DNA of 64,000 nt from Candidatus Nomurabacteria bacterium. Its GTDB lineage: Bacteria; Patescibacteriota; Minisyncoccia; Phycocordibacterales; UBA918. The first letter of the stretch is position 1; each line of letters opens with the position of its first letter. The position numbers were made by a program, and so were the translations under genes. The DNA is taken from the NCBI GenBank assembly GCA_020632075.1, contig JACKGH010000001.1, positions 42,133-106,132 of the forward strand. Direction: 5' to 3'. Positions 19,487 to 45,067 of the stretch are shown here, piece after piece. The notes under the pieces are model-generated. The model saw nothing but the letters and a program-made list of their open reading frames with translations. It was not told the origin of the DNA and ran no database searches.

Positions 19487-19532
19487 TTAACTAATTCCAA
19501 CAACAGGCCTTTTTCTGTTGTTTTATTAGTTA

Positions 19533-20414: not shown

Positions 20415-20420
20415 TCATTA

Positions 20421-20921: not shown

Positions 20922-21321
20922 TCAGAAAAAACCTATGCAATACGGCTATTCAAAACAAGTAGCGCTACCCTTTACGGAAGCGGTGACAAAAACTAAAGAC
21001 GCACTGGCAGTGGAAGGTTTCGGGGTGCTCACTGAGATTAATGTTGCTGCCACGCTGAAGAAAAAACTCGATATTAATTTCAATCAGTACGTCATATTTG
21101 GTGCGTGTAACCCGGCGTTTGCCCACCAAGCACTCGAGGCAGAACCAGAGATTGGTCTACTACTTCCGTGCAACGTAATTGTTTACGAGCGCGACGGCAG
21201 TGTGCATGTCTCCGCCATTCTGCCAACGGTCGCCATGCAAATGGTTAAAAACGACTCATTACACGAAATCGCAACTGCAGTTGAAGCAAAGCTTAAAACT
21301 GTTGTTGACGCAATCGCATAA
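20908..21321 (+). CDS. DUF302-family protein.
   Basis: YGYSKQVALPFTEAVTKTKDALAVEGFGVLTEINVAATLKK...ILPTVAMQM is typical of DUF302. Confidence 0.55.
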   Translation: MKTINQKKPMQYGYSKQVALPFTEAVTKTKDALAVEGFGVLTEINVAATLKKKLDINFNQYVIFGACNPAFAHQALEAEPEIGLLLPCNVIVYERDGSVHVSAILPTVAMQMVKNDSLHEIATAVEAKLKTVVDAIA

Positions 21322-21326
21322 ACCTA

Positions 21327-22090: not shown

Positions 22091-22093
22091 GCA

Positions 22094-22654
22094 ATGCTGC
22101 GAACACTCGGTACAGTCTTTAAACAACCACGGTATATACTCGTAGCGACACTCGTTGCGGTGAGTGTATTCGTGTTTGCAGTCTGGTTACCAAATGTCAG
22201 TTTGATAGCTTCTGTTCTTACGTCAAATGTGGGTACCTCTGCGGAGAAGGTGACTTTTCTGTTTAGCCTATTAGGCTCACTTACTACCAACTTCACGGTT
22301 CTATCTGCTGGTACGACCATTGTGGTGGCGATACTCTTTGGTATGAATGTCGCATTACTTCTGTACTACATCCAGAAAGTTAGAGTTAGAACATCAAGCA
22401 TTAGCTCCTTTAGTGGTATGGGTGTAGCTGGTGTCATAAGTGGCTTCTTGGGGGTCGGGTGTGCAGCATGCGGAACCTTTATCTTAAGTTCCGTACTGGT
22501 GCTGATTGGAGCTGGTGGAATATTAGTATACTTACCATTCGGAGGAAAAGAATTCGGAGTCATTGGTATTGCTCTACTGTTAGTAAACATTCACCAGTTA
22601 CTTAAAAAGATCAATACCAGTCTTACCTGTGAGACAAATTTATTTAGGAAGTGA
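22094..22654 (+). CDS. Four-TM membrane protein with an intramembrane CxxC (GVGCAACG) and a C-terminal Cys; conserved partner of the DsbA-like gene.
   Basis: Four hydrophobic helices, GFLGVGCAACGTFIL, and C-terminal TSLTCETN. It is a paralog of 59717..60271. Confidence 0.5.
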   Translation: MLRTLGTVFKQPRYILVATLVAVSVFVFAVWLPNVSLIASVLTSNVGTSAEKVTFLFSLLGSLTTNFTVLSAGTTIVVAILFGMNVALLLYYIQKVRVRTSSISSFSGMGVAGVISGFLGVGCAACGTFILSSVLVLIGAGGILVYLPFGGKEFGVIGIALLLVNIHQLLKKINTSLTCETNLFRK

Positions 22655-22671
22655 ATTAGAAAGATAAAATT

Positions 22672-27196: not shown

Positions 27197-27240
27197 TGAC
27201 GCAATACCCTGAAGGAGTCTAGGGCATCTGAAGTTGGTAA

Positions 27241-28710: not shown

Positions 28711-29110
28711 AGTGATTTACGGACGAGAGCCGAAGCGCCTCTTTTATGAGACGCTTTTGCTCTTTCGTTAATGGTTCATCAGTCGATACCTTTCCTGAAA
28801 TCTCAAGCTTGTTGCTGTACCGAGAATTGTGCGTGGTCAAATACAAGCGAATTGCTTTAAACTCTCGATCACCAATAAGAGAAAACAGTTGATTCTCCGC
28901 AACATCAGACATAAACGTTCGACCCTCAACAAGCGCATCTTCGACCTGTTTTTTGAAACGCTTGTTGCTATTGATCCAGCGATACACAGTGGCTCGACCA
29001 ACACCCACTTTCTGACATGCTGTCTCGATGGTTGGGGTACGTTTAAGTTGCTCAAGAAACGCTTCCTTGAGTTTCTTTTGCCGAGCGTGAATAGTGTCAC
29101 GCCTGCTCAT
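28688..29110 (-). CDS. Terminase small subunit-like HTH protein.
   Basis: MSRRDTIHARQKKLKEAFLEQL...TACQKVGVGRATVYRWI has a HTH and sits upstream of TerL. The start was chosen at the internal Met to avoid overlap with the MTase. Confidence 0.5.
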   Translation of the reverse strand: MSRRDTIHARQKKLKEAFLEQLKRTPTIETACQKVGVGRATVYRWINSNKRFKKQVEDALVEGRTFMSDVAENQLFSLIGDREFKAIRLYLTTHNSRYSNKLEISGKVSTDEPLTKEQKRLIKEALRLSSVNHYGKKKEK

Positions 29111-29864
29111 ACGGTTTTGCTTTAATGCTGGTAAGTTTCTCGAAGCGGGCAATGATAGTCGCACAGTACTCAGGGTCGAGTTCAATACCTACACACTTTC
29201 GCTTAGTCTGCTCGCAAGCGAGTAGTGTCGTTCCAGAGCCAAGAAAGCTATCGAAAACAACATCACCGACTCGAGTGCTGTTCAGAATCAGACGACGAAT
29301 CAAATCAAGCGGTTTTGTGGTCGGATGCATCTTGCTTTGGTTTGGCTTTGGACACACGAGCACACTCTTATCTTTGGATTTCACAAACTCATGTGTGCCG
29401 TACCAGCCATACACAATCAGTTCATGTTGTGGTGCGTAATCAAGCCGACCTACAACTGCATGCGTCTTCACCCAGATAAGTAACTGGGCAAACTTCACAT
29501 CTAGTTCATTCATCGCTTCTCGCAGCGCAAACACCATCTTGTCTGCGTTGAAGATATAGAGACCATTCTTTCGTTCTAGATGTGATAACACAGGAGCAAG
29601 CCATGCTTTGGTGAATTCGCGATATTCATCGTCACTTTGGATATGGTCGTTGGTAATTACTTTGTCTTTAGCGAGAGTCTGGAAGTTACGTTTACTCTCC
29701 GTTACTGCCACTCCATACGGAGGATCACTTATAACCGCTTTGATCTTTTTATCTCCAATAATCTTGGCTACTAGCTCAGCATTCCGAGCATCACCACAGG
29801 CGAGGACATGCTCGCCAAGCACGAAGATGTCTCCGTGCTTAATTGAGTTTTGTAACTGGCTCAT
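29097..29864 (-). CDS. DNA methyltransferase (N6-adenine/N4-cytosine family, DPPY).
   Basis: Motif IV SDPPYGV and motif I FDSFLGSGTTLLACEQ. Confidence 0.85.
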   Translation of the reverse strand: MSQLQNSIKHGDIFVLGEHVLACGDARNAELVAKIIGDKKIKAVISDPPYGVAVTESKRNFQTLAKDKVITNDHIQSDDEYREFTKAWLAPVLSHLERKNGLYIFNADKMVFALREAMNELDVKFAQLLIWVKTHAVVGRLDYAPQHELIVYGWYGTHEFVKSKDKSVLVCPKPNQSKMHPTTKPLDLIRRLILNSTRVGDVVFDSFLGSGTTLLACEQTKRKCVGIELDPEYCATIIARFEKLTSIKAKPYEQA

Positions 29865-31119
29865 GTGAGAGTTTCTTAAATCGGTTGATAATCACCTGAC
29901 AGAAGACAGGCTCTATTTCGTTGAGGTACGCAGTACGCTTTAGCTGCTCGCAAGCTGAGAGAATACTCCCTGAGCCAGCGGTCAGGTCGAGTACAGTGTC
30001 TCCTGGTTTGGTACAACGGCGTAATGCTTTTTCGTGCAGTGTCGGATTCTTCTGGGTTGGATGTTCATATTCGCTACCAGGAATCCGCTTTACGAGCCAG
30101 ATGTTGAAGAGGTCTAGAATGTCGTCAGTTAGCCGATTGCCAGAAGAGACTTCTTTATTAATCACTTCGTTAAGATTCTTCAGTGAGTCATTCAGATACG
30201 GCTTACCAACCGTGCCGTACACGCAATATTCAGTAACTTTGTTGAATGCCACCTTCGGGGTGGGTGACTGATTGTCTTTGATCCAAATACAGAGCCGCTT
30301 CGAATCTACTCCTAGCTCTCGGTAGAGTTGCTGGAATAACCAAACGTATCGCTCGTCGGTCCAAAACATTACATGAGCGTCTGGTTTTGCTACCGACAGC
30401 GCATTTTGCATGATGGTGCGGATAAACAACTGATACTCATCGTCAGATTTGTTGTCATTTGTAGTACCACCGTACTTTGCTTTATTCCCGACACCTTTGT
30501 CGTATGACAATCCTATATTGAATGGCGGGTCGTCGTTTATGAGATCTATTCGCACACCATTAGTGAGTTGCTTTACTGTCTCGGGATCTAAGGCATTTCC
30601 ACACATCAGACGATGTCTACCAAGAGAAAAATAATCTCCTGGTTTGATGTTTGTATCCTGTGCGTTCTCTACCTCTTTCTTTTCATCAAACTCATCATTC
30701 ACAATCTCTAAGTTGTCATCGAATATGAATGACAAATCTTGTGACTCAAATCCAGCTAGTAGGAGTTCATCAATGTTGAAATCTGATGCGAGCTTTTCGT
30801 AGTCCCACGTTCCGCCTGAGCGGTTTGAGGTGAGAAGATAGTCACGAAATTCAGCTTTAGTGAGTGGTCGATTTGGGACTCGTACTTCAATCTCTTCTTC
30901 TTCACGACCAAGGAGCGATAGTGCCAAGACCCGCTGATTTCCAGCCACCAAGGTTCCGTCTGTGTTAATACAAGGCAGCTCAGCAACGTTGAACTTGTTG
31001 AGACTACGCTTCAGTCCCTCTAGTTGAGAGTCTGTGAGTTTACGGGGATTTTTCCCGTATCTAATAAGGTCTTTAACTTTCCGACGTTCAGTACGCCAGA
31101 CTAATTTTTGTTTAGCCAT
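29839..31119 (-). CDS. ParB-like nuclease domain fused to a DNA methyltransferase (N6A/N4C family).
   Basis: The N-terminus RYGKNPRKLTDSQLEGLKRSLNKFNVAELPCI...AGNQR is ParB/Srx-like. It is followed by DDPPFNIG (motif IV) and LDLTAGSGSILSACEQ (motif I). Confidence 0.85.
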   Translation of the reverse strand: MAKQKLVWRTERRKVKDLIRYGKNPRKLTDSQLEGLKRSLNKFNVAELPCINTDGTLVAGNQRVLALSLLGREEEEIEVRVPNRPLTKAEFRDYLLTSNRSGGTWDYEKLASDFNIDELLLAGFESQDLSFIFDDNLEIVNDEFDEKKEVENAQDTNIKPGDYFSLGRHRLMCGNALDPETVKQLTNGVRIDLINDDPPFNIGLSYDKGVGNKAKYGGTTNDNKSDDEYQLFIRTIMQNALSVAKPDAHVMFWTDERYVWLFQQLYRELGVDSKRLCIWIKDNQSPTPKVAFNKVTEYCVYGTVGKPYLNDSLKNLNEVINKEVSSGNRLTDDILDLFNIWLVKRIPGSEYEHPTQKNPTLHEKALRRCTKPGDTVLDLTAGSGSILSACEQLKRTAYLNEIEPVFCQVIINRFKKLSHEPVTKLN

Positions 31120-31798: not shown

Positions 31799-32305
31799 AT
31801 GACATTCGACCCACAATTAATCTTATTATTCATCAACACAGTCGCTGTCATTTTTGTAATCGCACTGTTTTTAACTAAGAATGATACTGCCAGAAACGGT
31901 GACGCTGGTGATATTTACGAGAGGATTAAGAATGATATCAAATTCACATTCGAACCAATGGTCGATATACCACTTGGTGTCGAGGAAATCGTCGACCTTG
32001 CGGTAGAAGTGTGGCGAATGGAACAAAGGTTGTCTAAAGCGTCCGAAAATATACCAGAGATACACCAACGCAGTCTTTCAAATTCAATAAATCGTCTAAA
32101 GAGTTACTTAAATAAGTACGATGTAGAAATCCATGACTATACAGGACAAAAATATAACGATGGATTAAATTTTGACATTCTCTCCAGAGAGCAGGACCCG
32201 ACTCTTGAATCACCAATCGTAAAAGAAACAGTTGAGCCTACCATTACATGCAGAGGTAAGGTGGTGAAGAGGGCAAAAATCATATTGGCATCAAATCAAA
32301 AATAG
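31799..32305 (+). CDS. Hypothetical N-terminally membrane-anchored protein; first gene of the cargo operon.
   Basis: TM LILLFINTVAVIFVIALFL. The next gene starts 3 nt after its stop. Confidence 0.5.
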   Translation: MTFDPQLILLFINTVAVIFVIALFLTKNDTARNGDAGDIYERIKNDIKFTFEPMVDIPLGVEEIVDLAVEVWRMEQRLSKASENIPEIHQRSLSNSINRLKSYLNKYDVEIHDYTGQKYNDGLNFDILSREQDPTLESPIVKETVEPTITCRGKVVKRAKIILASNQK

Positions 32306-32307
32306 TT

Positions 32308-34800
32308 ATGGCAACTCGAAATATACAAATTGGAATTGATTTAGGTACCACAAACTCAGAGGTGGCAATTAATAATGGATCTGCTATTGAAATAATCAAG
32401 AATGGTTTTAATGATGAGTATACTCCTTCAGTATTTGGTGTAGATAAATCAAAAAATAAAATCGTGGGTAAAAAAGCCTATGAAAGATTGTTTAAATATT
32501 CATCAACCGAAGAACTAAATAACAACAAAGCTGAGGTTAAGAGAATCATGGGAACCTCAGAGACAGTACGTTTTGATAGAACAAATGAAGAATTACAACC
32601 TGAAGAGATTTCCGCAGAGATTTTGAAGTCACTAAAAGAAGACATTTTAAGAAAGTATAGTGACTTTGAGACTACGTCTGCTGTCATCACGATACCCGCT
32701 CACTTTTCTGTTGTTCAAGCTGAAGCAACCAAGAGAGCTGGAAATATAGCTGGATTTAATTATGTTGTTTTGCTCCAAGAACCAATCGCAGCCGCAATCG
32801 GTTACGGTTTTATGAATGCTAAGAACGAAAACTGGTTAGTATATGATCTTGGCGGCGGCACATTTGATGTTGCATTAATTTCTGCAAAAGATGGAAATCT
32901 TACTGTTGTTGCTCAAAACGGTGACAACTTCTTAGGAGGAAAAGACTTCGATAAATTGATAATCGATAAAGTCTTAATTCCAAAAATCAAAGAAGAATTC
33001 AACGTACCCGACCTAAAAGATGATCAAGTCGTTTTCTCTAAACTCAAGAATCTAGCAGAGACAGCAAAAATTGAACTAACCTCATCTGATAAGACTAATA
33101 TCCAAGTAGAAAACATTGGTGAGGATATGAATGGAAATGAAATTTATCTATCCATTGATTTCACTCGGTCAGAATTTGAGAAGCTTATCAAACCTCTAGT
33201 AGAACGAACAATAAAACTGAGTCAGGAAACAATTAAAGAATCTGGCATTAAACAGAGTTCAATCAATAAAATCATACTTGTTGGCGGACCTACATTAATT
33301 CCTTATATAAAAGATCGCCTTGAACGAGACCTAAAGATTGAGGTTGATACCAGTGTCGATCCTCTAACAATTGTTGCAAGAGGGGCTTGTATCTACGGAG
33401 TCAGTCAACAAATACCTGAAGAATTTCTGGAAAAAAGAGCTGATGCCGCTGAATCAATGTCGGTAAAATTACACTTCGACTCACTGTCATCTGATATTGA
33501 GACAACCATTAGTGGTGTAGTTGAGGATTTGAGGGACTCGGAAGAAGAGTATTATATTCAAATCCAAAGCGACTCAGGTACCTATAGTGGCCCAAAGATT
33601 AAAGTTAAAGGAGGTAAATTTTTTGACACTATAACCCTCGACAAAAATAAAACTAACCTATTCTGGATTTATCTTTTCGATTCTGAGGGAAACACTATTC
33701 AGATTGACCCTGACTCCTTTACTATTATTCACGGATTGTCTATATCTGGTGCGCCAATCCCTCATTCTGTTGGGGTTGGAGTTGTTAAGAAGGATTTTAA
33801 GACAGGTATTGCTACCGAAGTATTTGATAAATACTTTTCAAAAAATAGCACCTTGCCACTCGAAGAGACAAAAATCTTTAAGACTCTCAGAAAGCTTAAA
33901 AAGGGCGACAAAGATAACGCTCTACCTATCAATGTATATGAGGGAGAGTCTGACAGACAGGACAGAAATCAAAGAATCTGCAGCCTCAAGCTAACTGGTG
34001 AGCAGATACCCTATGATCTTCCTGAAGGAACTCCTGTTGAAATTACCATAAAGATTAATGAATCTCGCGAAGTCTCAGTTAATGCTTACATTGAGTCAAT
34101 TGATCTTTCTGTAGATGCCCGGGCAACTATTCATGATGAAGAACTGGACGTTGAGCAAATGAAGTCAGAGCTTGAACTACAAAGAAATCGAATTTCGAAT
34201 GCCAAGGAAAACTGCTCGGATGCTGAACGTAGAGATCTGGAAAACACATACGAATCCGTAGACGATAGTTTGCAAAGAGCTGAGGACGATCAGGATGAGA
34301 AAAGAAAAGCTAATAAGCAACTCAAAGATTTAAAGATTCAACTTGACTCCATCGAGCGAGACAAAGAAATGCCACAGCTAACTCGTGAATTTCGTGATGG
34401 CCTAATGAATGCAGACGAAACAATTAGAGAACTTGGTGATAAGGAAGAATACAATCAGCACAAAGAATTACTTGAAGCATTAAAGGCTGAAGGTGAAATT
34501 GCAATTGAAAACAACGACAAACATCTATTGGCTCGAGTGAATGAACAAATTGATGAGCTTAAGCAAAAGATTGTCTTTTCAAATCCTGCTGCATGGGCCT
34601 ATCTTTTCCAAAAGATAGTGTCAGAAAATAAGAATTTTATTAGCGACAAAGAAGCTGAATATTTCATCAACAAGGGACTTAGGTCAATTGAGGTTGGTGA
34701 TGTCGAAGAACTAAAGCGTTGCGTTAGAGGATTGCTGTTGTTGCTACCCCCTGAACAACAGCACATGATTCAAAGTTCAATGTCAGGTATAACTTATTAA
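32308..34800 (+). CDS. Non-canonical Hsp70 (830 aa): a complete actin-like NBD, a long insert, a degenerate SBD-beta and a helical C-terminus.
   Basis: IGIDLGTTNSEVA (phosphate 1), DLGGGTFDVAL (phosphate 2), ILVGGPTLIPYIKD (adenosine motif), and the SBD-like INVYEGESDRQDRNQRICSLKLTGEQIPYDLPEGTPVEITIKINESREVSVNA. Confidence 0.8.
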   Translation: MATRNIQIGIDLGTTNSEVAINNGSAIEIIKNGFNDEYTPSVFGVDKSKNKIVGKKAYERLFKYSSTEELNNNKAEVKRIMGTSETVRFDRTNEELQPEEISAEILKSLKEDILRKYSDFETTSAVITIPAHFSVVQAEATKRAGNIAGFNYVVLLQEPIAAAIGYGFMNAKNENWLVYDLGGGTFDVALISAKDGNLTVVAQNGDNFLGGKDFDKLIIDKVLIPKIKEEFNVPDLKDDQVVFSKLKNLAETAKIELTSSDKTNIQVENIGEDMNGNEIYLSIDFTRSEFEKLIKPLVERTIKLSQETIKESGIKQSSINKIILVGGPTLIPYIKDRLERDLKIEVDTSVDPLTIVARGACIYGVSQQIPEEFLEKRADAAESMSVKLHFDSLSSDIETTISGVVEDLRDSEEEYYIQIQSDSGTYSGPKIKVKGGKFFDTITLDKNKTNLFWIYLFDSEGNTIQIDPDSFTIIHGLSISGAPIPHSVGVGVVKKDFKTGIATEVFDKYFSKNSTLPLEETKIFKTLRKLKKGDKDNALPINVYEGESDRQDRNQRICSLKLTGEQIPYDLPEGTPVEITIKINESREVSVNAYIESIDLSVDARATIHDEELDVEQMKSELELQRNRISNAKENCSDAERRDLENTYESVDDSLQRAEDDQDEKRKANKQLKDLKIQLDSIERDKEMPQLTREFRDGLMNADETIRELGDKEEYNQHKELLEALKAEGEIAIENNDKHLLARVNEQIDELKQKIVFSNPAAWAYLFQKIVSENKNFISDKEAEYFINKGLRSIEVGDVEELKRCVRGLLLLLPPEQQHMIQSSMSGITY

Positions 34801-34808
34801 AATAGAAT

Positions 34809-36269
34809 ATGAATCTCTTAAAAGATAATGCATACCACATATTAGGCTTAGATACTTCAGCAAGCCAAAAAGAGATCTCCAAGAGGTCAAAAGAAATATT
34901 AACGCGCCTAAAAATTGACGATGTACCAGAGTACGAAATTGACTTAAATTTCTTTTCAAATTTTAGAACTGAGAATTCGGTAAAACTGGCACAATCTAAT
35001 TTATCGAATCCTAAGAAATTGATAAAAGAATACTTCTTTTGGTTTCAGGTTGCAGATAGCGTAGACGAAGAAGCTGTTGATTTTTTCAGAAAAGGACAAT
35101 TTGGTGAAGCTGCAAAAATATGGAAGGAGCATAGCCAAGGAGATACCATAAAGTCATTACTCTATAAAAAGAATTTGGCGATTTTAGTTACAATTCTCTT
35201 GTACAAATCAAAAGATGATGACCTCCTTAACAAGTCAGTCTCATTGTGGAGTGAATTAATAGGGTCTGATAAATTTTGGAACGGGTTTTCAAAAGTGTAT
35301 AAGTTACATGATGAATTGGGTTCTGACTCAGAAGTTATTAGTGATTTCAAAAGTAAGGTTGCCGATTATCTTTCTGACATTTATGCAGAGTTATCTTCAA
35401 TTCATCAGGACAAAGACTTTGTTACTTTGTTCGCAAAAAATTTTGGACTTAAGGGTGAAAAGATGGAGGCTGATGTATTGAACCCAATCTATAAAGTGAT
35501 AAATGACGCCGTTGAAGAATTGGATGCACTTGGCGTGAGTGATGACGGGGTGTTAGATCAAAAAGAAACCGCAGAGATTAAGCGACTTATTGGCATCATC
35601 CAATCTGAACTAAATAAGCTAATAGATCTTGGTTTGTACGATGATAGTAAGATTAAACTTGTACGTGACAGAGCTGCTGCTACCCTAAGAAAACTAAGTA
35701 TTGAGGTAAACAACAACTTAAATGAGGCTGATATTGCATTAGGTTTAAGTAAAATTGCCGATAGCATTTCAGGAACAACCAGCTTTAAGAGCAAGGTCCA
35801 GCAAGACATTAAAACTCTTGAAGAAAATCAAGCCTATAAAGCAAAGGAAGAAAAGCAAAAGGCTATTATTGATCCAATTCTGGCCACTTTTAAAGCTGGC
35901 GACTCAGAGAAGGCACTTCAGACAATTAATGCTTACATCTATAACGAAAGTACTGACCCTGATTTAAAAGAAACGTTATTAGAAATTAAAAAAGTTATTG
36001 AGGAACGTATCGTCCAACATGGTAAACCAGTAAAAAGTGCCCCCACCTTGTTTACTCTTAACGGTTTCGGTACAAAAATATATGGTGACACTTTGTATGT
36101 CACACTTTTGTTCATACCAGTAATTCCTCTCTCTCGATACTCCTTGGTTAATAATGGTGACAATTACAGTTTCCAGGGGAAGTTGGAATTGCGAGAGTGG
36201 CAAAAGATTTGGAAGGTGGTGGGTTTGATCGCGGTCGGTATTATCGTGCTTATGATGTTTAGCAGCTAG
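34809..36269 (+). CDS. J-like domain protein lacking the HPD motif, with a C-terminal transmembrane anchor.
   Basis: N-terminal AYHILGLDTSASQKEISKRSKEILTRLKIDDVPE aligns with DnaJ YYEILGV...EIRKAYKRLAMKYHPD, with HPD replaced by IDD. The C-terminal TM is WKVVGLIAVGIIVLMMF. Confidence 0.6.
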   Translation: MNLLKDNAYHILGLDTSASQKEISKRSKEILTRLKIDDVPEYEIDLNFFSNFRTENSVKLAQSNLSNPKKLIKEYFFWFQVADSVDEEAVDFFRKGQFGEAAKIWKEHSQGDTIKSLLYKKNLAILVTILLYKSKDDDLLNKSVSLWSELIGSDKFWNGFSKVYKLHDELGSDSEVISDFKSKVADYLSDIYAELSSIHQDKDFVTLFAKNFGLKGEKMEADVLNPIYKVINDAVEELDALGVSDDGVLDQKETAEIKRLIGIIQSELNKLIDLGLYDDSKIKLVRDRAAATLRKLSIEVNNNLNEADIALGLSKIADSISGTTSFKSKVQQDIKTLEENQAYKAKEEKQKAIIDPILATFKAGDSEKALQTINAYIYNESTDPDLKETLLEIKKVIEERIVQHGKPVKSAPTLFTLNGFGTKIYGDTLYVTLLFIPVIPLSRYSLVNNGDNYSFQGKLELREWQKIWKVVGLIAVGIIVLMMFSS

Positions 36270-36273
36270 GCTT

Positions 36274-36867
36274 ATGAATGATCACTTAGACTTCAACACA
36301 GATTTTTTAAATAATCCTGTTTCTGGTAAGAATCAGGGTCCATCTAATGATAACCAACCCAAAAATGGTGGGGGTAAAAAAGGTTGGATTATAGCAGCAG
36401 TCATCTTCGGTGTCCTTATTGTTATTGGTGCGATGGAAGATTCTGGTTCAACAGGTTCAACTTATACACCAACAACCAACTCGACGTACAGCAACAACAC
36501 GAACACTTCTGCTGATCATTCATTAGTATTTGATGGGCAAACTTTTAGATGTTCTGATTATCACTATGATAAAGCGATGGCATTGAGGCCAGACGCAACA
36601 CTGAGCGCACAAATAGATTCAGAGAGTGCAGCTCTAGATTTGCGTATTAGTAGTCTAGACTCAGAAGCGGCTAGGATAGACGCAATGTATGTTGATGAGT
36701 ATAGCCAGTGGTCGATTGATAACTACAACGCAGCTGTTGATGCATATAATGTTAAGAAAAATAGACTACAAGCCGATATTGATAGTTGGAATCTAAAAAA
36801 CACTTCTTTTAATAGAAAAATTGATGCTTACAACAATTACCTAGATACTAACTGCCGACCACAATAA
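36274..36867 (+). CDS. Single-pass membrane protein with an extracytoplasmic domain (197 aa).
   Basis: TM WIIAAVIFGVLIVIGAM. A Thr/Ser/Asn-rich linker follows, with repeated AYN/YN motifs. Confidence 0.5.
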   Translation: MNDHLDFNTDFLNNPVSGKNQGPSNDNQPKNGGGKKGWIIAAVIFGVLIVIGAMEDSGSTGSTYTPTTNSTYSNNTNTSADHSLVFDGQTFRCSDYHYDKAMALRPDATLSAQIDSESAALDLRISSLDSEAARIDAMYVDEYSQWSIDNYNAAVDAYNVKKNRLQADIDSWNLKNTSFNRKIDAYNNYLDTNCRPQ

Positions 36868-36870
36868 ATT

Positions 36871-37926
36871 ATGTCAATTCAAACAAAACCAATTCTACAT
36901 AATGGCTTTGAAATCAGAGAAGGCCTAAAAGTAAAGAGTCGTATCGACAAGGTATTTTTCACTGAGATTTATCACCTTGATAACGACACATACTTCTACC
37001 TCTTCCTAAATCTCAATCCTAACGAAATTATCGATAAGCGAGGGCGGTATGAATTAGTGAGGATTAATATCTCTTCTAAGGAGTGGATTGGAGCTATTGT
37101 AAAAAGTAATACTAACCCCGCTTCTGTCATTGAGGAGTTAACTACTCTGCGAGGATTTGATCAGATTGCTGGAATGCAAGAACTAAAGAATCTATTGATT
37201 GCAGAAGTGATAAATCCGCTACGAGATCCTGCTAGATTTGAAAAATTCAAAGTGTCTATACCTAACGGAATTTTGCTTTACGGTCCTCCGGGATGCGGAA
37301 AAACCTTCATCGTAAGAAAACTTGCGGAAGAGCTGGGATATAACTTTTTTGAAGTAAAACACTCAGACCTTGCAACGCCTTTTATACATGGATCAGTAGG
37401 TAATATTGGTAAGGTTTTTGAAACCGCAAAACAGAATTCACCAGCTGTTGTATTTTTTGATGAAATCAGTGGTCTTGTACCAAACCGTCAAAATTTGAAT
37501 GATTCATCTTCACACAAAGAGGAAGAGGTTAACGAGTTTTTGATTCAGCTTAACGATGCTGCTGATAATAATATTCTAGTTGTAGGTGCAACGAACTATA
37601 TTGATCGAATTGACCCAGCGATATTGAGGCCAGGACGAATGGATAAAAAGATTCATGTCCCACCACCTGACGCAGAAGCCAGAAAAGAACTATTCAAGCT
37701 TGGTCTTTCAGGTCGTCCGCACGATGAGAATATCGACTTTGAACACCTAGCTAAAATAACCGATGGCTACAGTAGCGCTGACATTATTGAGGGTATAGTT
37801 GAAGGAGCTGCTCGTCTGGCTGCGAACATGGATAAACAAGAAATTGATCAGGAACTACTAGAAAAAGAAGCAGCTAAACTTAAACCTGTAGAAGAAGAAA
37901 AGCCGAGATTTGGTTTCGGTGCGTAA
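36871..37926 (+). CDS. Classical-clade AAA+ ATPase (CDC48/FtsH/Vps4-like module) with an approximately 100-aa N-domain.
   Basis: Walker A GILLYGPPGCGKTF, Walker B VVFFDEISGL, and a second region of homology with Arg fingers GATNYIDRIDPAILRPGRMDKKIHV. Confidence 0.8.
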   Translation: MSIQTKPILHNGFEIREGLKVKSRIDKVFFTEIYHLDNDTYFYLFLNLNPNEIIDKRGRYELVRINISSKEWIGAIVKSNTNPASVIEELTTLRGFDQIAGMQELKNLLIAEVINPLRDPARFEKFKVSIPNGILLYGPPGCGKTFIVRKLAEELGYNFFEVKHSDLATPFIHGSVGNIGKVFETAKQNSPAVVFFDEISGLVPNRQNLNDSSSHKEEEVNEFLIQLNDAADNNILVVGATNYIDRIDPAILRPGRMDKKIHVPPPDAEARKELFKLGLSGRPHDENIDFEHLAKITDGYSSADIIEGIVEGAARLAANMDKQEIDQELLEKEAAKLKPVEEEKPRFGFGA

Positions 37927-37937
37927 TTTAGTAATCA

Positions 37938-38600
37938 ATGGAAATCGACTCAAAAGAAATCATTCTGCAATTGTTGAAAGGGATGTGGGAAATGAAGTCA
38001 CTATACCTCATGCTGTTTGGAGTGGTTGTCTTGGCCTTAATTGCAAGAATCCTTATGGATTTGATGAGCCGACAAAGTCAAATTAAGTGGTTTCTAGGCA
38101 AGCAAAAAGTTCAGGACTTGCAAAAGCTCACACCTTCACAATTTGAGGAATATATCGCCGAACTATTTAAATCACTTGGCTATCAAGCAGTTGTAACTGG
38201 CGGTAAGGGTGATGGAGGAGTCGATGTTGAAGCAGAAAAAGACGGCATCAAACACTACATTCAATGCAAAAAATTCATCACATCAAAAGTACCCGTTGGA
38301 GCAGTGCGTGACTTCTACGGTGCTATTGCAGATAGGATTGATGGTGGAAAGGGTTATTTCATCACTACAAATGTTTTTACACTTGATGCTGAACATTTTG
38401 CAGAAGATAAACCAATTGAACTAGTTGATAAGTTCAAGTTGATGGAATACATGCACATGGCGAATGTGGAAGTTCCAGAGTCCACTCCCGTCGTGTGTCC
38501 AAAGTGCGGATCCGAGCTTATTCGTCGCAGTGGTAAATACGGTCCCTTTATGGGCTGTAGTACGTATCCAAAGTGTGACTACACAAAGAAACTCGCATAA
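37938..38600 (+). CDS. Membrane-anchored Mrr-type (type IV restriction-like) PD-(D/E)XK nuclease fused to a topoisomerase-type C4 zinc ribbon.
   Basis: N-terminal TM LYLMLFGVVVLALIARILM; Mrr_cat-like FEEYIAELFKSLGYQAVVTGGKGDGGVDVEAEKDGIKHYIQCKKF; and C-terminal CPKCGSELIRRSGKYGPFMGCSTYPKCDY. Confidence 0.65.
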   Translation: MEIDSKEIILQLLKGMWEMKSLYLMLFGVVVLALIARILMDLMSRQSQIKWFLGKQKVQDLQKLTPSQFEEYIAELFKSLGYQAVVTGGKGDGGVDVEAEKDGIKHYIQCKKFITSKVPVGAVRDFYGAIADRIDGGKGYFITTNVFTLDAEHFAEDKPIELVDKFKLMEYMHMANVEVPESTPVVCPKCGSELIRRSGKYGPFMGCSTYPKCDYTKKLA

Positions 38601-38606
38601 GGTTAT

Positions 38607-39677
38607 ATGGATAAAGAAGTCGCATATAAGCCAAACACAACAGCCTGTGAGGATCTACCATATCCAATAGTATTATATCCCGGTTTCTACGGCTCCTTTT
38701 TCGCATTTAAGCAGAATAAAAAAGCAAAACCTCACTTTTGTTCATGTGCGTACGAAGCAATAGAAAACTACATTAGAATCAGACAGTCATCTGAGATTCC
38801 ATTGAACTCATACCCTGATCGTATGTACTTATTGGATTCCCACGATTTTCCAAAATCTGTTGTCCAGACTTTGATGCAATCCAACATACCTGACGATCAG
38901 GTGTTGGCGAATCTTAACTTTGCTGACAAGTTATGTCATGAGTGCAATTTGCAAACTCCTTCGTATCGCTATTGTGTAGAGATGTACGGAGGTGCATTCA
39001 AGCAAAATTATGGTTGGTACATAGGAAAACAAGCATACGAGTGGGGTTTTGATAGGAGTAAAAGTAAGTTGTTGATCGACAGTTTGTGTCCTGAAGATCT
39101 TCTTGAGTTGGTCAATGATGAATCCTTCCAGTATGGTAGAAAGAGACGAAGAGAAATTGCAGATAAAACGTTTGAGTTCGATAGAGATTTTGCAAACATT
39201 TCAGATGTAGATCGACAAGAATACAGTGCTTTGTTCCAAGAAGCTCGAAATATTGATAAAAGTCTCTCAAAACACTACAGAAAGATCAACAATGTTGTTG
39301 AGAACGAAGTGCGAAGGAAATTTGGTCATAAGAATGTTGGTGAAGCATGGACTAGTGAAACAATTCTCTACTACATAGTAAAAAAACTATATCCTGAACA
39401 TACAATCCACCGTCACTATCGTCCTGACTTTTTAGATGGTCTAGAATTAGATATTTACATTGAGGAGCTGAATATAGGTATTGAGTACCAAGGCATTCAG
39501 CACTACAAGCCAGTAAAACACTGGGGTGGTGAAGATGCGTTAAAAAAGTTGCAACAAAGAGATAAAAAGAAGAGGAATATTTGCAAAAAGATTGGAATTC
39601 CACTTATCTATTTTGAACATGATGAGGGATTGAGCGATAGTCTAGTTGTAGCGAAGTTAAGTGATTATGAAAGTTAG
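38607..39677 (+). CDS. Hypothetical protein with a C-terminal DUF559/Vsr-like PD-(D/E)XK endonuclease domain.
   Basis: The C-terminus HRHYRPDFLDGLELDIYIEELNIGIEYQGIQHY...RDKKKRNICKKIGIPLIYFEHDE aligns with the DUF559 core (YIVDF...LVIELDGGQHY...RD..L...G..VLRF.N.E). Confidence 0.5.
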   Translation: MDKEVAYKPNTTACEDLPYPIVLYPGFYGSFFAFKQNKKAKPHFCSCAYEAIENYIRIRQSSEIPLNSYPDRMYLLDSHDFPKSVVQTLMQSNIPDDQVLANLNFADKLCHECNLQTPSYRYCVEMYGGAFKQNYGWYIGKQAYEWGFDRSKSKLLIDSLCPEDLLELVNDESFQYGRKRRREIADKTFEFDRDFANISDVDRQEYSALFQEARNIDKSLSKHYRKINNVVENEVRRKFGHKNVGEAWTSETILYYIVKKLYPEHTIHRHYRPDFLDGLELDIYIEELNIGIEYQGIQHYKPVKHWGGEDALKKLQQRDKKKRNICKKIGIPLIYFEHDEGLSDSLVVAKLSDYES

Positions 39678-40239
39678 AATAAAGAAATTGATACAAAGAT
39701 TAAAAACTGACAAGAAACTGGCAGGTCTTTTTTTTCTATATGTTGCTACGGTGGTCGTTGTTTCTTATTTATTTATTCAGTGGCCTGAATATGCAAACAA
39801 GACTACCTACATTCTTTTCCTAATTTCTCTAATGCTGGTCACGTTGTTTACTTGGTCAATGGCAGCGTTGGCTATCTTCAGGTCTCTTCTAGTTGTTGGT
39901 GCAGGACTATCACTAGTGTTGTTCATTGCTCAATCGTACTGCGCCTTACCTCTTAACGAACAGGTTGCAGACGACTCTCTACAGAGCTTGATTGGAATAA
40001 GTGTTTTGTTTATAGGCGTGATGTTTTTTAATCGACTGTACCGCGAGCTGTTTGGTAATCCAGAATCGAAGCGTGAATTTGATAAGCTTGGTGCACTTAA
40101 AGTCTTTCGGGAAGCAAACAAAGGTAAGGATTCTGTTTTAATCCTTGTTCTTTACGCTTCCTTTATGGGTCTTATTCTAGGTCAGTTGTTCCAAGTTTTG
40201 TTCCCGATTTTTATTAACCTTTGTGTTTATCAACCATGA
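39667..40239 (+). CDS. Multi-pass membrane protein (about 5 TM).
   Basis: Overlaps the upstream stop; has five hydrophobic helices. Confidence 0.5.
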   Translation: MKVRIKKLIQRLKTDKKLAGLFFLYVATVVVVSYLFIQWPEYANKTTYILFLISLMLVTLFTWSMAALAIFRSLLVVGAGLSLVLFIAQSYCALPLNEQVADDSLQSLIGISVLFIGVMFFNRLYRELFGNPESKREFDKLGALKVFREANKGKDSVLILVLYASFMGLILGQLFQVLFPIFINLCVYQP

Positions 40240-40883
40240 CTGAATTATTAAAAATAGTACACAAATGTGTAGACAAGATTAAAGACGATTTTCTTTTGTT
40301 TTCAGTTGCAACTTTAGTATTAATGGTTGCTTTTCCAGAAGCAAAGATGACAACCTTCATTGTCTATGGCACTGCGGTGCTTATTTATGTTGTCGTAACT
40401 CTGATTAAAAGTAGAAAGCAGGAAACGAACAATCGTTTTTTACAGAATGTAGATGATTTCTTAAACGATCCAGCTTCTTGGGAACGTCGCACTATTGATC
40501 ATTCAGATGTCTATTTCTATTCTAGAGATAACAATTACAAAATTGTAACTGGTGACGAGTCAATACGTGAGTGGGAACCAAACATTGAACCTTGGATGCA
40601 AAATTTTCCAGACCCTCATGTTTCTGAGTACAACGTGTATTTAAAGCATGGAGAGAACACAATTGCAGAGTATAAATTTGTATATTGTGATGGTGCAAGA
40701 TATTTTATGCCCTTACCTAAAAAGCGTTGTGCTGAACCAGGAGATGATTTCAGATGCAATAGGTTCGAGTATATTTGGAATCGCAATTCAATCGAATATA
40801 AAATTGGTACTGTAATAGGTGATTTTTATAGGTATGAAAATCTGGAAGAGGTAGCTAGATTCTGCGGTATCGTGATTGAGTAA
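40236..40883 (+). CDS. Membrane-anchored hypothetical protein (2 TM plus a soluble domain).
   Basis: ATGA start/stop overlap with the upstream gene. TMs are FLLFSVATLVLMVAF and FIVYGTAVLIYVVVTLI. Confidence 0.5.
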   Translation: MTELLKIVHKCVDKIKDDFLLFSVATLVLMVAFPEAKMTTFIVYGTAVLIYVVVTLIKSRKQETNNRFLQNVDDFLNDPASWERRTIDHSDVYFYSRDNNYKIVTGDESIREWEPNIEPWMQNFPDPHVSEYNVYLKHGENTIAEYKFVYCDGARYFMPLPKKRCAEPGDDFRCNRFEYIWNRNSIEYKIGTVIGDFYRYENLEEVARFCGIVIE

Positions 40884-40897
40884 TCTATGGATTTTGT

Positions 40898-41845
40898 ATG
40901 TATAAAAACTTATATGACAAACATAAAATTAGAGGTGCCTTTATTACAGAAGACAATAAGAAGTTAATAGTAAACTTCGAGTTTTCAAACAAGGTAGTAT
41001 CCTTTAACAAAGGTCAGCTAATCGAAACGACTGAGACCTTAGAGAGGGCGGAAGTGAAAACTGTACTAGAGAAAGATAAGTATTTTGTATGTGTTGTTTC
41101 GACACCTGAAGCTGACCTCGATTTTCTTTATAAGATTTCCCTCGCGATTGCTTATGTAGTTGGTCAGAATTTTGAACTTCAATACTACTTCAAAGAATTT
41201 CCATACTATCCAACAAGTCACCACTGGAACATTGATAGCTGCAATCCAATATCGCGAAGACTTTTTGAAGACCTTTTACGTTCACCAAGTAACACTATCA
41301 GATTTTTACTTTCATTATTGCGCGATGACGCAACTGCTTTTTCACAACTTGTACCAACAATGTTGGTAGTAAACGCATACAATCACTCAGAAGTAAGCTT
41401 TATTACAGAGTTTGGTCTATTACAAAAGCTTTCCAAGAGGCACGATGCCGACAGTAAGTTGTTCACAGCCGAAAATGATCTAGATAAGCTATCACAGTTT
41501 TCTAATACAATACTTGAAACACTCCAGTTAGATTATACTGATATCAATATACCTGCACTAGAAAAGAAGTTATCGACAGAAAGCTTAAATAGTAAAACCG
41601 CTACAAACGAAAAGATTGTTTCGTATTTAAACAGTTTTGATAAAGAAAGAATAAAGTCGTGTGCTGAATATGTCCCACAATGGAATAAGTTGAGAAGTTC
41701 TGCACTTGTGACTCACGGAGGCAGACCGATCAATGTCAAAGATGCAGATAAACGTGGAAAAATGCACAAACTTCACGAACTATTATTGGACATAGTTAGT
41801 CTAGAGGTAAATGCAAAATATGGAGATGCTGGCATTCTAGACTGA
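40898..41845 (+). CDS. Hypothetical soluble protein (315 aa).
   Basis: In-operon ORF; no motif recognised. Confidence 0.45.
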   Translation: MYKNLYDKHKIRGAFITEDNKKLIVNFEFSNKVVSFNKGQLIETTETLERAEVKTVLEKDKYFVCVVSTPEADLDFLYKISLAIAYVVGQNFELQYYFKEFPYYPTSHHWNIDSCNPISRRLFEDLLRSPSNTIRFLLSLLRDDATAFSQLVPTMLVVNAYNHSEVSFITEFGLLQKLSKRHDADSKLFTAENDLDKLSQFSNTILETLQLDYTDINIPALEKKLSTESLNSKTATNEKIVSYLNSFDKERIKSCAEYVPQWNKLRSSALVTHGGRPINVKDADKRGKMHKLHELLLDIVSLEVNAKYGDAGILD

Positions 41846-41865
41846 TGAGCATACAATGAGGACTA

Positions 41866-43194
41866 ATGGAGTATCTCAAACCAAAACACTACTACACTGA
41901 CCTCTACGATAAACATACAGTCGAACGCTGTCGTCGTATTGAAAGTACGAATAGCATGCCTGATGCAGATCGCCCGAAGAAAGTCAGTAAGAAAGAAGCT
42001 GAAGCAATCAACGACTGGGCACACAACCTCATCCTTACCTTTGAGAAAGGGTCTCGCTGGTCCAATAAAGAAAAGACCATTAATGATTGGATGGAGAGAG
42101 ATAGAAGACGAGACGAGCTATTAGAATCAGCCAAAGCGCCAGAAGATATCCGCTGCCTCACGTGTCGTAATCGTATGGAACCTAATCACCGACAGCTTTG
42201 GCACGGTGATGAAGATAAGCCAGATCGTGTCCTCTTTATGTATGACTGCCCGAACCAGTGTCTTCCACGGCGGGCATTTTTTGATGATGGTAAGGAATGG
42301 CGCAGTACCCCACACCTCTGTGCTCGTTGTGGCAATCCAACCAATCACACGGTCTCTGATGACAAAGAGAAAATGGTCACAACGTACACTTGTCCAACTT
42401 GTCATCATGTTGAAGTTGATGAGTACGTCTGGAATAAGCCAGAAGATGAATACGATGAACACTTCGCGACGGATCGTGATCGATTCTGTGTTTCAGATGA
42501 AGAAGGGAGAAATATAGAAGACATGAAATGGCAAATGGAGCGCATGGGTGACTTTGCTAAGGAGTGGGAAGAGAAAGAAAAAGCTCGTGCCAAGAAACTA
42601 GAGGAGAACCCAAAAGGATTTCACCTTGAGGGTGCTGGCTATACTTGTTCGATTTGTCGCAATAGTACCCCTGCAGGAGACAACTGGTACGATAAATGGG
42701 GTATCAAATGTCTAGTGTGTCAGTGGTCCATTGATCATAAAGAAATACCAGCCTCACTCGCCAAGAATGAGGATAGCTGGTATCGAAAGTATGACTTTGA
42801 ACACTATTTTAATGTGAAGGGTCAGACGCTCAATAAATGGGTTAGAGAAGGTCTGGTAAAAGCTCGAACGGTGAGTCGTTACGGTGAAGGTGTGCATACG
42901 CAAGTATTCCTTGTCAAAGATAACAAGGATTTCCTGCCTCCTAAGAAGTTACTTGAATCAAAGCGGGGTCGAGTTGTAGAGAATGGCAAAGAGGAGGTGC
43001 GAATACTGCCTTGGTACTGCTTTGGTGATCCGCACGAAATATTGAAAGGATACAAGATCATGGATTATTTACGAGTACTGTCTCCAGAAGAGGTAGAACA
43101 ACGAGAGAAAGAACGTCAGGAGAAAGCGGAGAAACGCAGACTGCATCGTGAGAAAGTAAAAGCTGCTAGAGAGAAGCGCAAGAAGCGTAAATGA
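41866..43194 (+). CDS. Multi-zinc-ribbon protein with a Lys/Arg-rich C-terminal tail.
   Basis: Three CxxC...CxxC pairs (CLTCRN...CPNQC; CARCGN...CPTCHH; CSICRN...CLVCQW), a GGA-rich RBS, and a tail EKRRLHREKVKAAREKRKKRK. Confidence 0.55.
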   Translation: MEYLKPKHYYTDLYDKHTVERCRRIESTNSMPDADRPKKVSKKEAEAINDWAHNLILTFEKGSRWSNKEKTINDWMERDRRRDELLESAKAPEDIRCLTCRNRMEPNHRQLWHGDEDKPDRVLFMYDCPNQCLPRRAFFDDGKEWRSTPHLCARCGNPTNHTVSDDKEKMVTTYTCPTCHHVEVDEYVWNKPEDEYDEHFATDRDRFCVSDEEGRNIEDMKWQMERMGDFAKEWEEKEKARAKKLEENPKGFHLEGAGYTCSICRNSTPAGDNWYDKWGIKCLVCQWSIDHKEIPASLAKNEDSWYRKYDFEHYFNVKGQTLNKWVREGLVKARTVSRYGEGVHTQVFLVKDNKDFLPPKKLLESKRGRVVENGKEEVRILPWYCFGDPHEILKGYKIMDYLRVLSPEEVEQREKERQEKAEKRRLHREKVKAAREKRKKRK

Positions 43195-44542: not shown

Positions 44543-44602
44543 TTCGAACATCGTCCCAAACTGCCAGCGAGATTGACAAATAGCATTTAATGTGCTATTT
44601 TG
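44543..44602 (+). promoter_or_regulatory. Promoter module copy 2.
   Basis: catcgtcccaaactgccagcgagaTTGACAaatagcatttaatgTGcTATTTT. Confidence 0.6.
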
Positions 44603-44638
44603 TTTTGGGTTTTTCTCAACAACCGCAAGAGGTATGAA

Positions 44639-45067
44639 ATGTTCAACAAACACAAAGGCTTTACACTGATCGAACTGATGATCGTCGTGGCTATTCTCGG
44701 CATACTGGTCGCAATTCTGGCTGGTGTCGGAGGTGCCGGCCTCTACGGCTGGGCTTTCTCAGAGGAGAAAAGTGGTCAACTACAGAGTGTCGAGTCGGCT
44801 ATTCCTGAAGGTGGCCTGATTGCGGCAACGGGAAGCGCTGTTTTTTCTGCTGCAGTTTCGATGAAGCTGGAAGACCAGTCGTATCTGACTTTCTCGACAG
44901 ATGATCGTCAGTGGGCAGTCTATCGGGGCGACAAGGCACGTGGTAAATGTGCAACCGTGAAGGTGTATCCATACGCACCATGGAATATTTCCAAGGGCGG
45001 CACGTTCCACAATGGCCGACTGCTCAAGGTCTGGGACTGTCCAGCGGTTATGATGAACGAAGGTTGA
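44639..45067 (+). CDS. Type IV pilin-like protein (prepilin with a class III signal).
   Basis: AAGAGGT RBS 7 nt upstream; MFNKHKG|FTLIELMIVVAILGILVAI prepilin peptidase motif; a terminator at 45088-45120. Confidence 0.7.
   Translation: MFNKHKGFTLIELMIVVAILGILVAILAGVGGAGLYGWAFSEEKSGQLQSVESAIPEGGLIAATGSAVFSAAVSMKLEDQSYLTFSTDDRQWAVYRGDKARGKCATVKVYPYAPWNISKGGTFHNGRLLKVWDCPAVMMNEG

Follow-up and report, generated by a model that had tools for sequence, protein, structure and literature searches.

A predicted membrane-anchored Mrr-type nuclease and a free-standing Vsr-like nuclease carried as separate cassettes on a phage-like element of a Candidatus Nomurabacteria bacterium

The closest described counterparts of the locus considered here, viz. 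two adjacent predicted nuclease genes (open reading frames ORF1 and ORF2) within a 64,000-nucleotide stretch of contig JACKGH010000001.1 from a Candidatus Nomurabacteria bacterium (this whole stretch is referred to below as the window), are found among membrane-bound nucleases, restriction enzymes and Vsr-like endonucleases. SNIPE (PD-lambda-1; Saxton et al., Nature 2026, PMC13190303) is a membrane-bound nuclease, which cleaves phage DNA during injection, and deletion of its helix yields a nucleoid-associated and toxic protein, the tethering preventing self-cleavage (PMC13190303). Epona, a protein of a Vibrio cholerae integron cassette, is a fusion of a transmembrane part with Mrr_cat for which anti-phage activity has been measured (Darracq et al., bioRxiv 10.1101/2024.07.02.601686). 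The Mrr/type IV enzymes share with ORF1 the same catalytic domain and its D...QxK signature, and for ORF2 the nearest catalytic kin are the EDxHD family (I-Bth0305I), Vsr and DUF559 (PMC3239194; PDB 3r3p, 1cw0, 3hrl).

In their overall plan, SNIPE and ORF1 are similar in having a single N-terminal transmembrane helix, a short N-terminal tail outside, and a nuclease that lies with its DNA-binding module on the cytoplasmic side (in ORF1 this arrangement is predicted), and both of them combine a variable N-terminal region with a strongly conserved nuclease, consist of a single gene and occur in defence contexts. However, SNIPE contains a GIY-YIG nuclease and a DUF4041 module binding DNA and tape-measure proteins (PMC13190303), whereas in ORF1 the nuclease is of the Mrr-type PD-(D/E)XK kind and is followed by a topoisomerase-type zinc ribbon; neither DUF4041 nor GIY-YIG was detected in ORF1 by a Pfam scan. 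ORF1 is half the size of SNIPE, with which it shares no homology and no common domain beyond the helix; hence the two are alike in logic, but ORF1 should not be interpreted as a member of the SNIPE family. Epona, which was compared by its description only, is likewise a single-gene protein in which Mrr_cat is fused to a transmembrane part, but it is described as containing a holin-like domain of two transmembrane segments and as lacking a zinc ribbon, whereas ORF1 has one helix and a four-cysteine (C4) ribbon. Canonical Mrr, in turn, is soluble and begins with the winged-helix domain Mrr_N, in place of which ORF1 has a membrane helix, in addition to its C-terminal zinc ribbon; no match to Mrr_N was seen in the Pfam scan of ORF1, whose residues 1-60 comprise a short tail, the transmembrane helix and a basic linker.

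Based on the results described below, we consider it moderately probable that ORF1 is a membrane-confined Mrr nuclease directed against foreign DNA and that ORF2 is a free-standing mobile endonuclease, with the two genes constituting separate cassettes. Both are real genes, predicted from their sequences to encode nucleases of the PD-(D/E)XK superfamily with intact catalytic residues, and proteins identical to both are present in a Candidatus Nomurabacteria assembly. Neither of them is a new kind of thing, and the ORF1 family in particular is populous and already annotated.

Nuclease core, zinc ribbon and membrane segment of ORF1

An earlier note on this DNA, made from the letters and their open reading frames, had described two nuclease genes at this position and quoted motifs from each of them; the ORFs are located exactly there and every motif is present. 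The Mrr-type core and the C4 zinc ribbon that it had read in ORF1 are both borne out by strong matches. The protein matches Pfam Mrr_cat (PF04471) with 93.2 bits (cut-off 21; E 1.5e-26) over profile positions 1-115 of 115, and Zn_ribbon_Top1 (PF01396) with 57.7 bits (cut-off 32; E 1e-15). The ORF1 family comprises 717 homologue clusters, of which 23 homologues, taken as a sample, were aligned. A profile made from these 23 sequences detected the solved Mrr-like protein AF1548 (1y88; E 6.9e-4) as well as topoisomerase I of E. coli, through its C-terminal zinc ribbons (4rul; E 5.9e-7), and in PADLOC the matches of ORF1 were to mREase_IV (3.8e-15), ZorD and PDC-S02, all at about 1e-15. The residues E70, D92, D96 and Q109-C110-K111 are invariant in the alignment, and so are the ribbon cysteines C187, C190 and C207, with C213 retained in at least 90% of the sequences. 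From knowledge of the family, and not from a structure, we take the invariant residues of the core to supply the catalytic acid and QxK motif of the PD-QxK variant together with the helix-1 Glu. Because the catalytic residues and the ribbon cysteines are conserved, the PD-QxK site and the zinc site of ORF1 are intact. A weaker Pfam match of ORF1 to NA-iREase1, a restriction-endonuclease family termed "inactive", is not applicable, as the catalytic residues are conserved. A literature search combining zf-C4_Topoisom with Mrr returned no papers, and a scan of viral contigs with the ORF1 family gave a single distant match.

The only strongly hydrophobic stretch of ORF1 is formed by residues ~21-43, where the Kyte-Doolittle mean over 19 residues reaches 2.55 (the classical threshold being 1.6). 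The earlier note was thus right about a hydrophobic helix near the start, although it does not occupy the very first residues of the protein as had been stated. Each of the 23 aligned homologues has an equivalent hydrophobic segment (Kyte-Doolittle 2.2-3.2), the sequence of which varies, and because hydrophobicity has been kept despite this free drift of sequence, the helix appears to be under selection. Membrane tethering, which had been considered unusual for a nuclease of this kind, is not so within the ORF1 family, in which it is the predicted rule for every one of the 23 sampled members. A few relatives (viz. P0211 and P0219) have two hydrophobic segments, and ORF1 itself has one.

The segment looks like a membrane anchor of the signal-anchor type, unlike a cleavable signal peptide, in agreement with what had been proposed earlier: the N-terminus of ORF1 consists of a 20-residue uncharged tail and a hydrophobic core of 19-23 residues, no AxA-type site is discernible by eye, and positive charge follows the helix. 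Over the 23 homologues, the 15 residues after the helix carry a net charge of 0 to +6, which is +2 or more in 22 of them and neutral in one, and only a small net charge (-1 to +3) is found on the flank preceding it. Judged by hydropathy and the positive-inside rule, the protein is predicted to expose its short N-terminal tail on the outside and to have both the nuclease and the ribbon on the cytoplasmic side.

The genomic surroundings of the ORF1 family are also informative. ORF1 homologues are typically the last, 3'-most members of arrays in which defence genes, either recognised or candidate, are all read in one direction; among their neighbours are a Type IIG restriction-modification enzyme (E 2.8e-235), GmrSD, HEPN, PDC-S06, a Hhe/PDC-S37-like superfamily 1 (SF1) helicase whose C-terminus is of the Vsr type, a Ppl-like SMC protein and, in 17 loci, a Cas4-like DUF2779 protein. 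On other contigs, the block consisting of the large and small terminase subunits (TerL and TerS) and two methyltransferases, together with the 442-amino-acid protein considered below, recurs beside ORF1 homologues. In the window as well, ORF1 and ORF2 are cargo in the variable, defence-type accessory region of an integrative, terminase-carrying, phage-like element.

The Vsr-like module, the N-terminal domain and the probable mobility of ORF2

ORF2 belongs to a family of 541 clusters conserved over their full length (typically 330-370 amino acids) with ~50% identity across phyla. The statement in the earlier note that it ends in a nuclease domain is correct, but what precedes this domain had been overlooked, viz. 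an N-terminal Cys/His domain and a helical linker, which across the family is hypervariable in both length and sequence. In the C-terminal module, E232, R236, E251, D282, E293, H299, D319 and K322 are invariant and Q295 is nearly so in 114 sequences, and all of the residues E251, D282, E293, Q295, H299, D319 and K322 are kept in seven family sequences drawn from bacteria, archaea and phage. Matched by position and order, E251, D282, Q295 (or E293), H299 and D319 correspond to E170, D196, N208, H213 and D222 of I-Bth0305I, the residue at the 'ExDG' position being Gln in ORF2; the roles of these residues in I-Bth0305I and Vsr, and the E-D-x-H-D set by which the EDxHD family is defined, have been described (PMC3239194). 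An AlphaFold2 model of ORF2 made from the 114 sequences has a predicted local distance difference test (pLDDT) score of 94.4; the EDxHD residues fall in the expected secondary-structure elements of this predicted model, and its catalytic domain is structurally similar to the Vsr-like PD-(D/E)XK fold group (Vsr, DUF559, I-Bth0305I and RAP), which forms one cluster in a census of the superfamily (PMC3424549).

The earlier note had described this domain as aligning well to DUF559 Vsr-like endonucleases. The Vsr-like part of this assignment stands, both at the level of the fold and through phage families: the C-terminal half of ORF2 matches PHROG families annotated as HNH, homing or intron-encoded endonucleases, viz. 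phrog_559 (6.7e-21), phrog_9084 (4.2e-13), phrog_7140 and phrog_3339. However, membership in DUF559, as judged by the Pfam criterion, does not. No Pfam match of ORF2 to DUF559 (PF04480) was obtained, the best value among 24 family members being E 0.26 in one of them, and in an hhalign comparison of the family with a genuine MTES_1575/DUF559 domain the probability was 0.2%, which is not significant, although the core motif was aligned. The only Pfam signal is from DUF2726 (PF10881; 16.9 bits, below the cut-off of 24.7), to which 4 of the 24 members show weak matches. Further, no Pfam or NCBIfam model matches ORF2 above threshold and no PADLOC v2 family does so at E <= 0.01, while searches of PDB sequences with full-length ORF2, the family profile and the C-terminal domain gave chance-level matches only (GlgB, nitrile hydratase and retinol-binding protein).

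In the N-terminal domain, C45, C47, C110, H111, E112 and C113 are invariant and C123 is near-invariant, and on account of these Cys/His residues the domain probably binds zinc. The same domain is found 300-390 residues into the longer proteins P0369, P0377, P0487 and P0425, the N-termini of which are ankyrin, TerB_N or helix-hairpin-helix (HhH) regions, which points to a module employed by conflict systems. ORF2 is best described as a variant of the Vsr/EDxHD nucleases, in which the N-terminal domain, as judged from a confident model having no known fold, is the most original element. The EDxHD homing endonucleases have a NUMOD/helix-turn-helix (HTH) N-terminal region, which ORF2 lacks; in its place are the Cys/His domain of 166 residues and the long helical linker of variable sequence. 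ORF2 is free-standing and not encoded within an intron or intein, and it falls below the Pfam thresholds for both DUF559 and DUF2726. Helicase-Vsr proteins of the Hhe/PDC-S37 type and the free-standing DUF4379-Vsr nucleases of phages resemble ORF2 in that a Vsr-type nuclease is the catalytic end of a modular protein of conflict systems or mobile elements, and they share their islands with ORF1 and ORF2. However, their N-terminal modules are different, viz. an SF1 helicase or a treble-clef finger, respectively, versus the novel domain of ORF2.

The distribution of ORF2 is compatible with that of a mobile gene. Its family spans bacteria, archaea and phages, and in 86 loci the neighbours are almost wholly unrelated from one locus to another. 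Two of the contigs compared (L001 and L096; the L numbers denote individual loci) are collinear with 78-82% nucleotide identity except for a 1085-bp indel, which corresponds exactly to the ORF2 coding sequence plus a 20-nucleotide spacer and lies between the stop codon of a DUF2779 gene and the ATG of the ORF1 homologue. The junctions in L001 (10001-11100) read TAAGCGTT, followed by ATG...TAG and the 20 nucleotides, followed by ATGGAATTC, and those in L096 (7991-8005) read TAAGCATT followed directly by ATGGAATTT. From this clean ORF2-sized indel it follows that ORF2 comes and goes as a cassette. A full-length homologue is located immediately upstream of terS in Clostridium phage phiCT19406A, and among 188 related S. 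thermophilus phages only 11 have a relative of the C-terminal domain between TerS and TerL. One protein of this type, gp03 of Streptococcus phage P7154 (L168, 1030-1938; 302 amino acids), combines an ORF2-like Vsr nuclease with a CapR-homology region and a treble-clef zinc finger (DUF4379), and is annotated as 'hypothetical protein'. The sporadic placement of such proteins between TerS and TerL is the pattern of a free-standing homing endonuclease. A search of the whole window with Rfam detected tRNA-Gln only, and no intron or ribozyme near ORF2.

Relationship of the two genes and their possible functions

The reading of ORF1 as a membrane-confined nuclease against foreign DNA is favoured because of its Mrr-type site, its zinc ribbon, the conserved membrane segment and its residence in defence islands. 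It would be a type-IV-like endonuclease of the Mrr family, which a single N-terminal helix anchors to the cytoplasmic side of the membrane, and its zinc ribbon would serve as a C-terminal DNA-binding module. Zinc ribbons of the topoisomerase I type bind single-stranded DNA. Such an enzyme would cut foreign DNA near the membrane, and the tether would deny it access to the host nucleoid, with location replacing or supplementing specificity for sequence or modification. In this it would resemble SNIPE and the transmembrane-Mrr_cat protein Epona; the suggestion of the earlier note that tethering could limit the nuclease to DNA at the envelope is reasonable, and an experimental precedent for it is supplied by SNIPE, although the two nucleases are unrelated. 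ORF2 is viewed as a free-standing mobile endonuclease because of its EDxHD fold, its homology to phage homing nucleases, its terminase-adjacent relatives, its unrelated neighbours and the indel. Its Vsr/EDxHD-type module would perform Mg-dependent cleavage of DNA, and the Cys/His domain, joined to it by the variable linker, would supply target recognition; a selfish, homing-type lifestyle would be favoured, with stand-alone defence a close second.

Several considerations weigh against parts of these interpretations. The topology of ORF1 is a prediction made from hydropathy and the positive-inside rule; the protein is devoid of a DUF4041-type module, which SNIPE needs to engage phage tape-measure proteins; and ORF1 could equally be an ordinary restriction enzyme at the cytoplasmic face whose anchor serves another purpose. 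ORF2, for its part, is located outside any intron or intein and has no known target site, while the fusions of its N-terminal domain (TerB_N, ankyrin and HhH) and its presence in defence islands fit an effector of a conflict system at least as well as homing. The cassette indel and the sporadic terminase-adjacent relatives are compatible with mobility, but they should not be interpreted as demonstrating homing. Lastly, adjacency of ORF1 and ORF2 in three different elements exceeds what is expected for wholly unrelated genes.

Among the alternatives, the most credible, although in our view it is less probable than a homing lifestyle, is that ORF2 is a stand-alone nuclease for defence against phages or plasmids, whose N-terminal domain senses some feature of foreign DNA. 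Its occurrence in islands beside genes for Hhe-like helicase, DUF2779, SMODS and DUF2726 proteins, the fusions of its N-terminal domain in other proteins and its high conservation across phyla are in accord with such a role. However, ORF2 is matched by no PADLOC model, its catalytic module is homologous to the phage families annotated as homing or intron-encoded endonucleases, its relatives are sporadically present at the classical position of homing genes next to terminase genes, and the indel is at the level of a cassette; on these grounds a free-standing mobile endonuclease is preferred.

It is also conceivable, but unlikely, that ORF1 is a conventional restriction enzyme, either a methyl-directed type IV enzyme or the type II partner of the N6/N4 methyltransferases of the element, the helix being incidental to its specificity. 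Type IV and some type II enzymes have Mrr_cat as their catalytic domain, in keeping with the PADLOC match to mREase_IV, and the TerL-TerS-methyltransferase-methyltransferase block is directly convergent to ORF1 in L088, L093, L100 and L160 and lies within 7 kb of it in the window. However, ORF1 lacks the Mrr_N recognition domain of canonical Mrr, no methyltransferase gene is present next to it at most ORF1 loci, and the hydrophobic segment has been kept in every aligned homologue despite the drift of its sequence. Further, the methyltransferases accompany the terminase backbone also in elements lacking ORF1 (L171 and L174), and due to this the possibility that they are the cognate modification enzymes of ORF1 was set aside. 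A membrane-confined nuclease thus remains the preferred reading of ORF1. A stronger version of the proposal, according to which ORF1 is an independently evolved, minimal entry-site nuclease of 220 residues that destroys DNA crossing the membrane, and ORF2 is the founder of a new homing-type family with a new zinc-binding recognition fold, of which the present lineage may use the conserved DUF2779-ORF1 junction as its homing site, must be regarded as speculative and somewhat more doubtful still than a conventional role for ORF1.

The adjacency of the two genes, which the earlier note had implied to be a pair, raises the question of a two-gene system in which one protein recognises or nicks the DNA and the other completes the cleavage, the two being obligately together. 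The genes are on the same strand in the window with a gap of 6 nucleotides, and they adjoin each other again in two other elements (L001/L002, which represent a single element, and L007). However, these three distinct elements are the only ones with such adjacency: ORF2 is a neighbour of ORF1 in none of the 80 metagenomic loci of the ORF1 family, and among the 86 loci of the ORF2 family ORF1 adjoins only in L001/L002 and L007 and in none of the ~36 loci below 60% identity. The gene order is also different, viz. ORF1-ORF2 in the window and ORF2-ORF1 in L001/L002 and L007; close homologues of ORF2 occur without ORF1 in L003 and L008; and the clean indel by which L001 is distinguished from L096 involves ORF2 only. 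Hence, a two-gene system is improbable, and it is incorrect to interpret the closeness of these genes in the window as indicating a functional pair. ORF1 and ORF2 are independent single-gene cassettes.

A further possibility concerns the five genes for membrane-associated, Hsp70-like and AAA proteins located directly upstream, of which ORF1 could be the effector nuclease, one multi-gene system then extending from 31799 to ~38600. In the window, eleven genes on the + strand (31799-43194) are tightly packed with gaps of 2-20 nucleotides or overlaps and no promoter or terminator signal is seen internally, the 168-, 486- and 197-amino-acid proteins of the module also have predicted transmembrane segments, and the AAA protein resembles the defence ATPase IetA. 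(A scan of 31-44.5 kb for promoters and terminators gave counts at or below shuffle expectation and is uninformative on sub-operons.) However, the same block is found in four other loci of the Candidate Phyla Radiation (CPR), viz. L171 (5991-12118), L172 (6032-12125), L173 (6038-12100) and L174 (5989-12503), and in all four of them it is complete, ORF1 and ORF2 are absent beside it, and it is followed by a convergent recombinase, phage capsid genes or host genes. ORF1 homologues elsewhere, in turn, follow a helicase and DUF2779, Type IIG restriction-modification enzymes or GmrSD. In view of the four module loci lacking ORF1, its interpretation as an effector of the Hsp70/AAA proteins, which we consider very improbable, was rejected. 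Least probable of all is that ORF1 is an exported or surface nuclease (similar to EndA or NucA) processing extracellular DNA for uptake, since, although competence nucleases are generally known to have a single N-terminal anchor, CPR bacteria depend on scavenging of DNA and nucleotides and a pilin-like gene is present at 44600-45067, nearly all homologues have their positive charge on the C-terminal side of the helix, zinc ribbons with four cysteines are typically cytoplasmic modules, and the gene resides on a mobile element among defence genes rather than competence genes.

The element, its other genes and the significance of the locus

The locations of the features discussed in this work are summarized in the table below.

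Table. Coordinates in the window of the two nuclease genes, their domains and the associated gene blocks.
Feature	Position	Strand	Remarks
ORF1	37938-38600	+	220 amino acids; NCBI-identical protein annotated 'restriction endonuclease' (Candidatus Nomurabacteria bacterium)
Predicted single transmembrane helix, ORF1 residues ~21-43	37998-38066	+	Hydropathy, flank charges
Mrr_cat PD-(D/E)XK domain, ORF1 residues 61-172	38118-38453	+	Pfam, 1y88 and PADLOC matches
C4 zinc ribbon, topoisomerase I type, ORF1 residues 186-219	38493-38594	+	C187, C190, C207, C213
ORF2	38607-39677	+	356 amino acids; NCBI-identical protein 'hypothetical protein H6786_00440'; no Pfam family above cut-off
Conserved N-terminal domain, ORF2 residues 1-166	38607-39104	+	Presumed metal-binding, DNA-recognition; no known structural relative
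Helical linker, ORF2 residues ~167-221	39105-39269	+	DSSP helices 172-193 and 200-238
Vsr/EDxHD-like nuclease module, ORF2 residues ~222-356	39270-39674	+	Invariant residues, fold
Five-gene membrane-associated Hsp70-AAA module	31799-37926	+	168 amino acids; Hsp70-like, 830; 486; 197; AAA, 351
Downstream array genes	39661-43194	+	192 amino acids; PDC-S50-like, 220; 315; 442
Element backbone	25853-31119	-	Large serine recombinase, terminase large subunit (489 amino acids), terminase small subunit, two N6/N4 DNA methyltransferases

The large terminase subunit of the backbone corresponds to phrog_38 (E 3.5e-78), and the guanine plus cytosine (GC) content of the 31-42 kb region is 35-41% (37%) versus ~48% around it. 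No portal, capsid or tail genes are present anywhere in the window, and the element looks like a satellite-like or degraded phage element. Of the genes downstream of the two nucleases, the 192-amino-acid ORF (39661-40239) encodes a protein with five predicted transmembrane segments for which no homologue was found in any library searched. The 220-amino-acid protein that follows (40221-40883, +) has two N-terminal hydrophobic segments and matches PADLOC PDC-S50, a candidate single-gene defence family (5.9e-14); PDC-S50-like homologues also come after ORF1 in L007 and L097. The Cys-rich 442-amino-acid protein (41866-43194, +) is near-identical in L088, L089, L090 and L160 (E ~1e-230) and is probably encoded by a backbone gene. 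Directly downstream of ORF1 homologues in loci L087-L107 and in L160 is the gene for a 233-amino-acid protein (cluster c2, 12 loci) with no Pfam or PADLOC match, which the window lacks; this protein might act together with ORF1 and have been lost or replaced here. Farther away, the region 14656-24306 begins with tRNA-Gln(CTG) and continues with a cluster of metal and redox genes, viz. a P-type ATPase (17021-19057), rhodanese/DUF1573, DUF302, a DsbA-like thioredoxin and a multicopper oxidase (22672-24306). Its GC content of 42-46% is between the values for the island and the flank, and this cluster may be a second acquired block.

The proteins of the Hsp70-AAA module are of similar construction in the different loci. 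The first (146-168 amino acids) has an N-terminal hydrophobic segment, the Hsp70-like ATPase (830-839 amino acids) has a long non-canonical C-terminal half, the third (486-489 amino acids, 581 in L174) has two C-terminal hydrophobic segments and the fourth (191-228 amino acids) has one, while the AAA protein is a classical AAA ATPase of the FtsH/Cdc48-like type (PADLOC IetA-like, 2e-33). In L172 the block is located inside the head-morphogenesis region of a prophage, with the portal/minor-capsid genes on one side and the major capsid gene on the other. As a unit, the module matched no defence system and no Pfam family, and no match was seen in a scan of viral contigs with the 486-amino-acid protein. 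This module on CPR integrative elements may be more novel than the finding of the two nucleases itself.

The present analysis removes a tempting but wrong interpretation of this locus, viz. that ORF1 and ORF2 work as a pair or serve as effectors of the Hsp70/AAA proteins. In ORF2, a confidently predicted domain having no structural relative is joined to a well-understood catalytic module, and if this domain reads DNA sequence it would represent a new recognition scaffold of the type sought in the engineering of homing endonucleases. If the proposed role of ORF1 is correct, then the principle of SNIPE, i.e. immunity by a membrane-confined nuclease, would not be peculiar to one GIY-YIG family but convergent, and location-based immunity could be built from the core of a restriction enzyme within 220 residues, with ORF1 as a compact model for it. 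The bacteria of the CPR (Patescibacteria) are abundant, have tiny genomes and rarely contain CRISPR, and how they resist foreign DNA is poorly understood. In the stronger version of the proposal, entry-site nucleases of the ORF1 type would be widespread on the phage-like elements of CPR bacteria, and would represent a second solution to the problem of distinguishing self from non-self by location.

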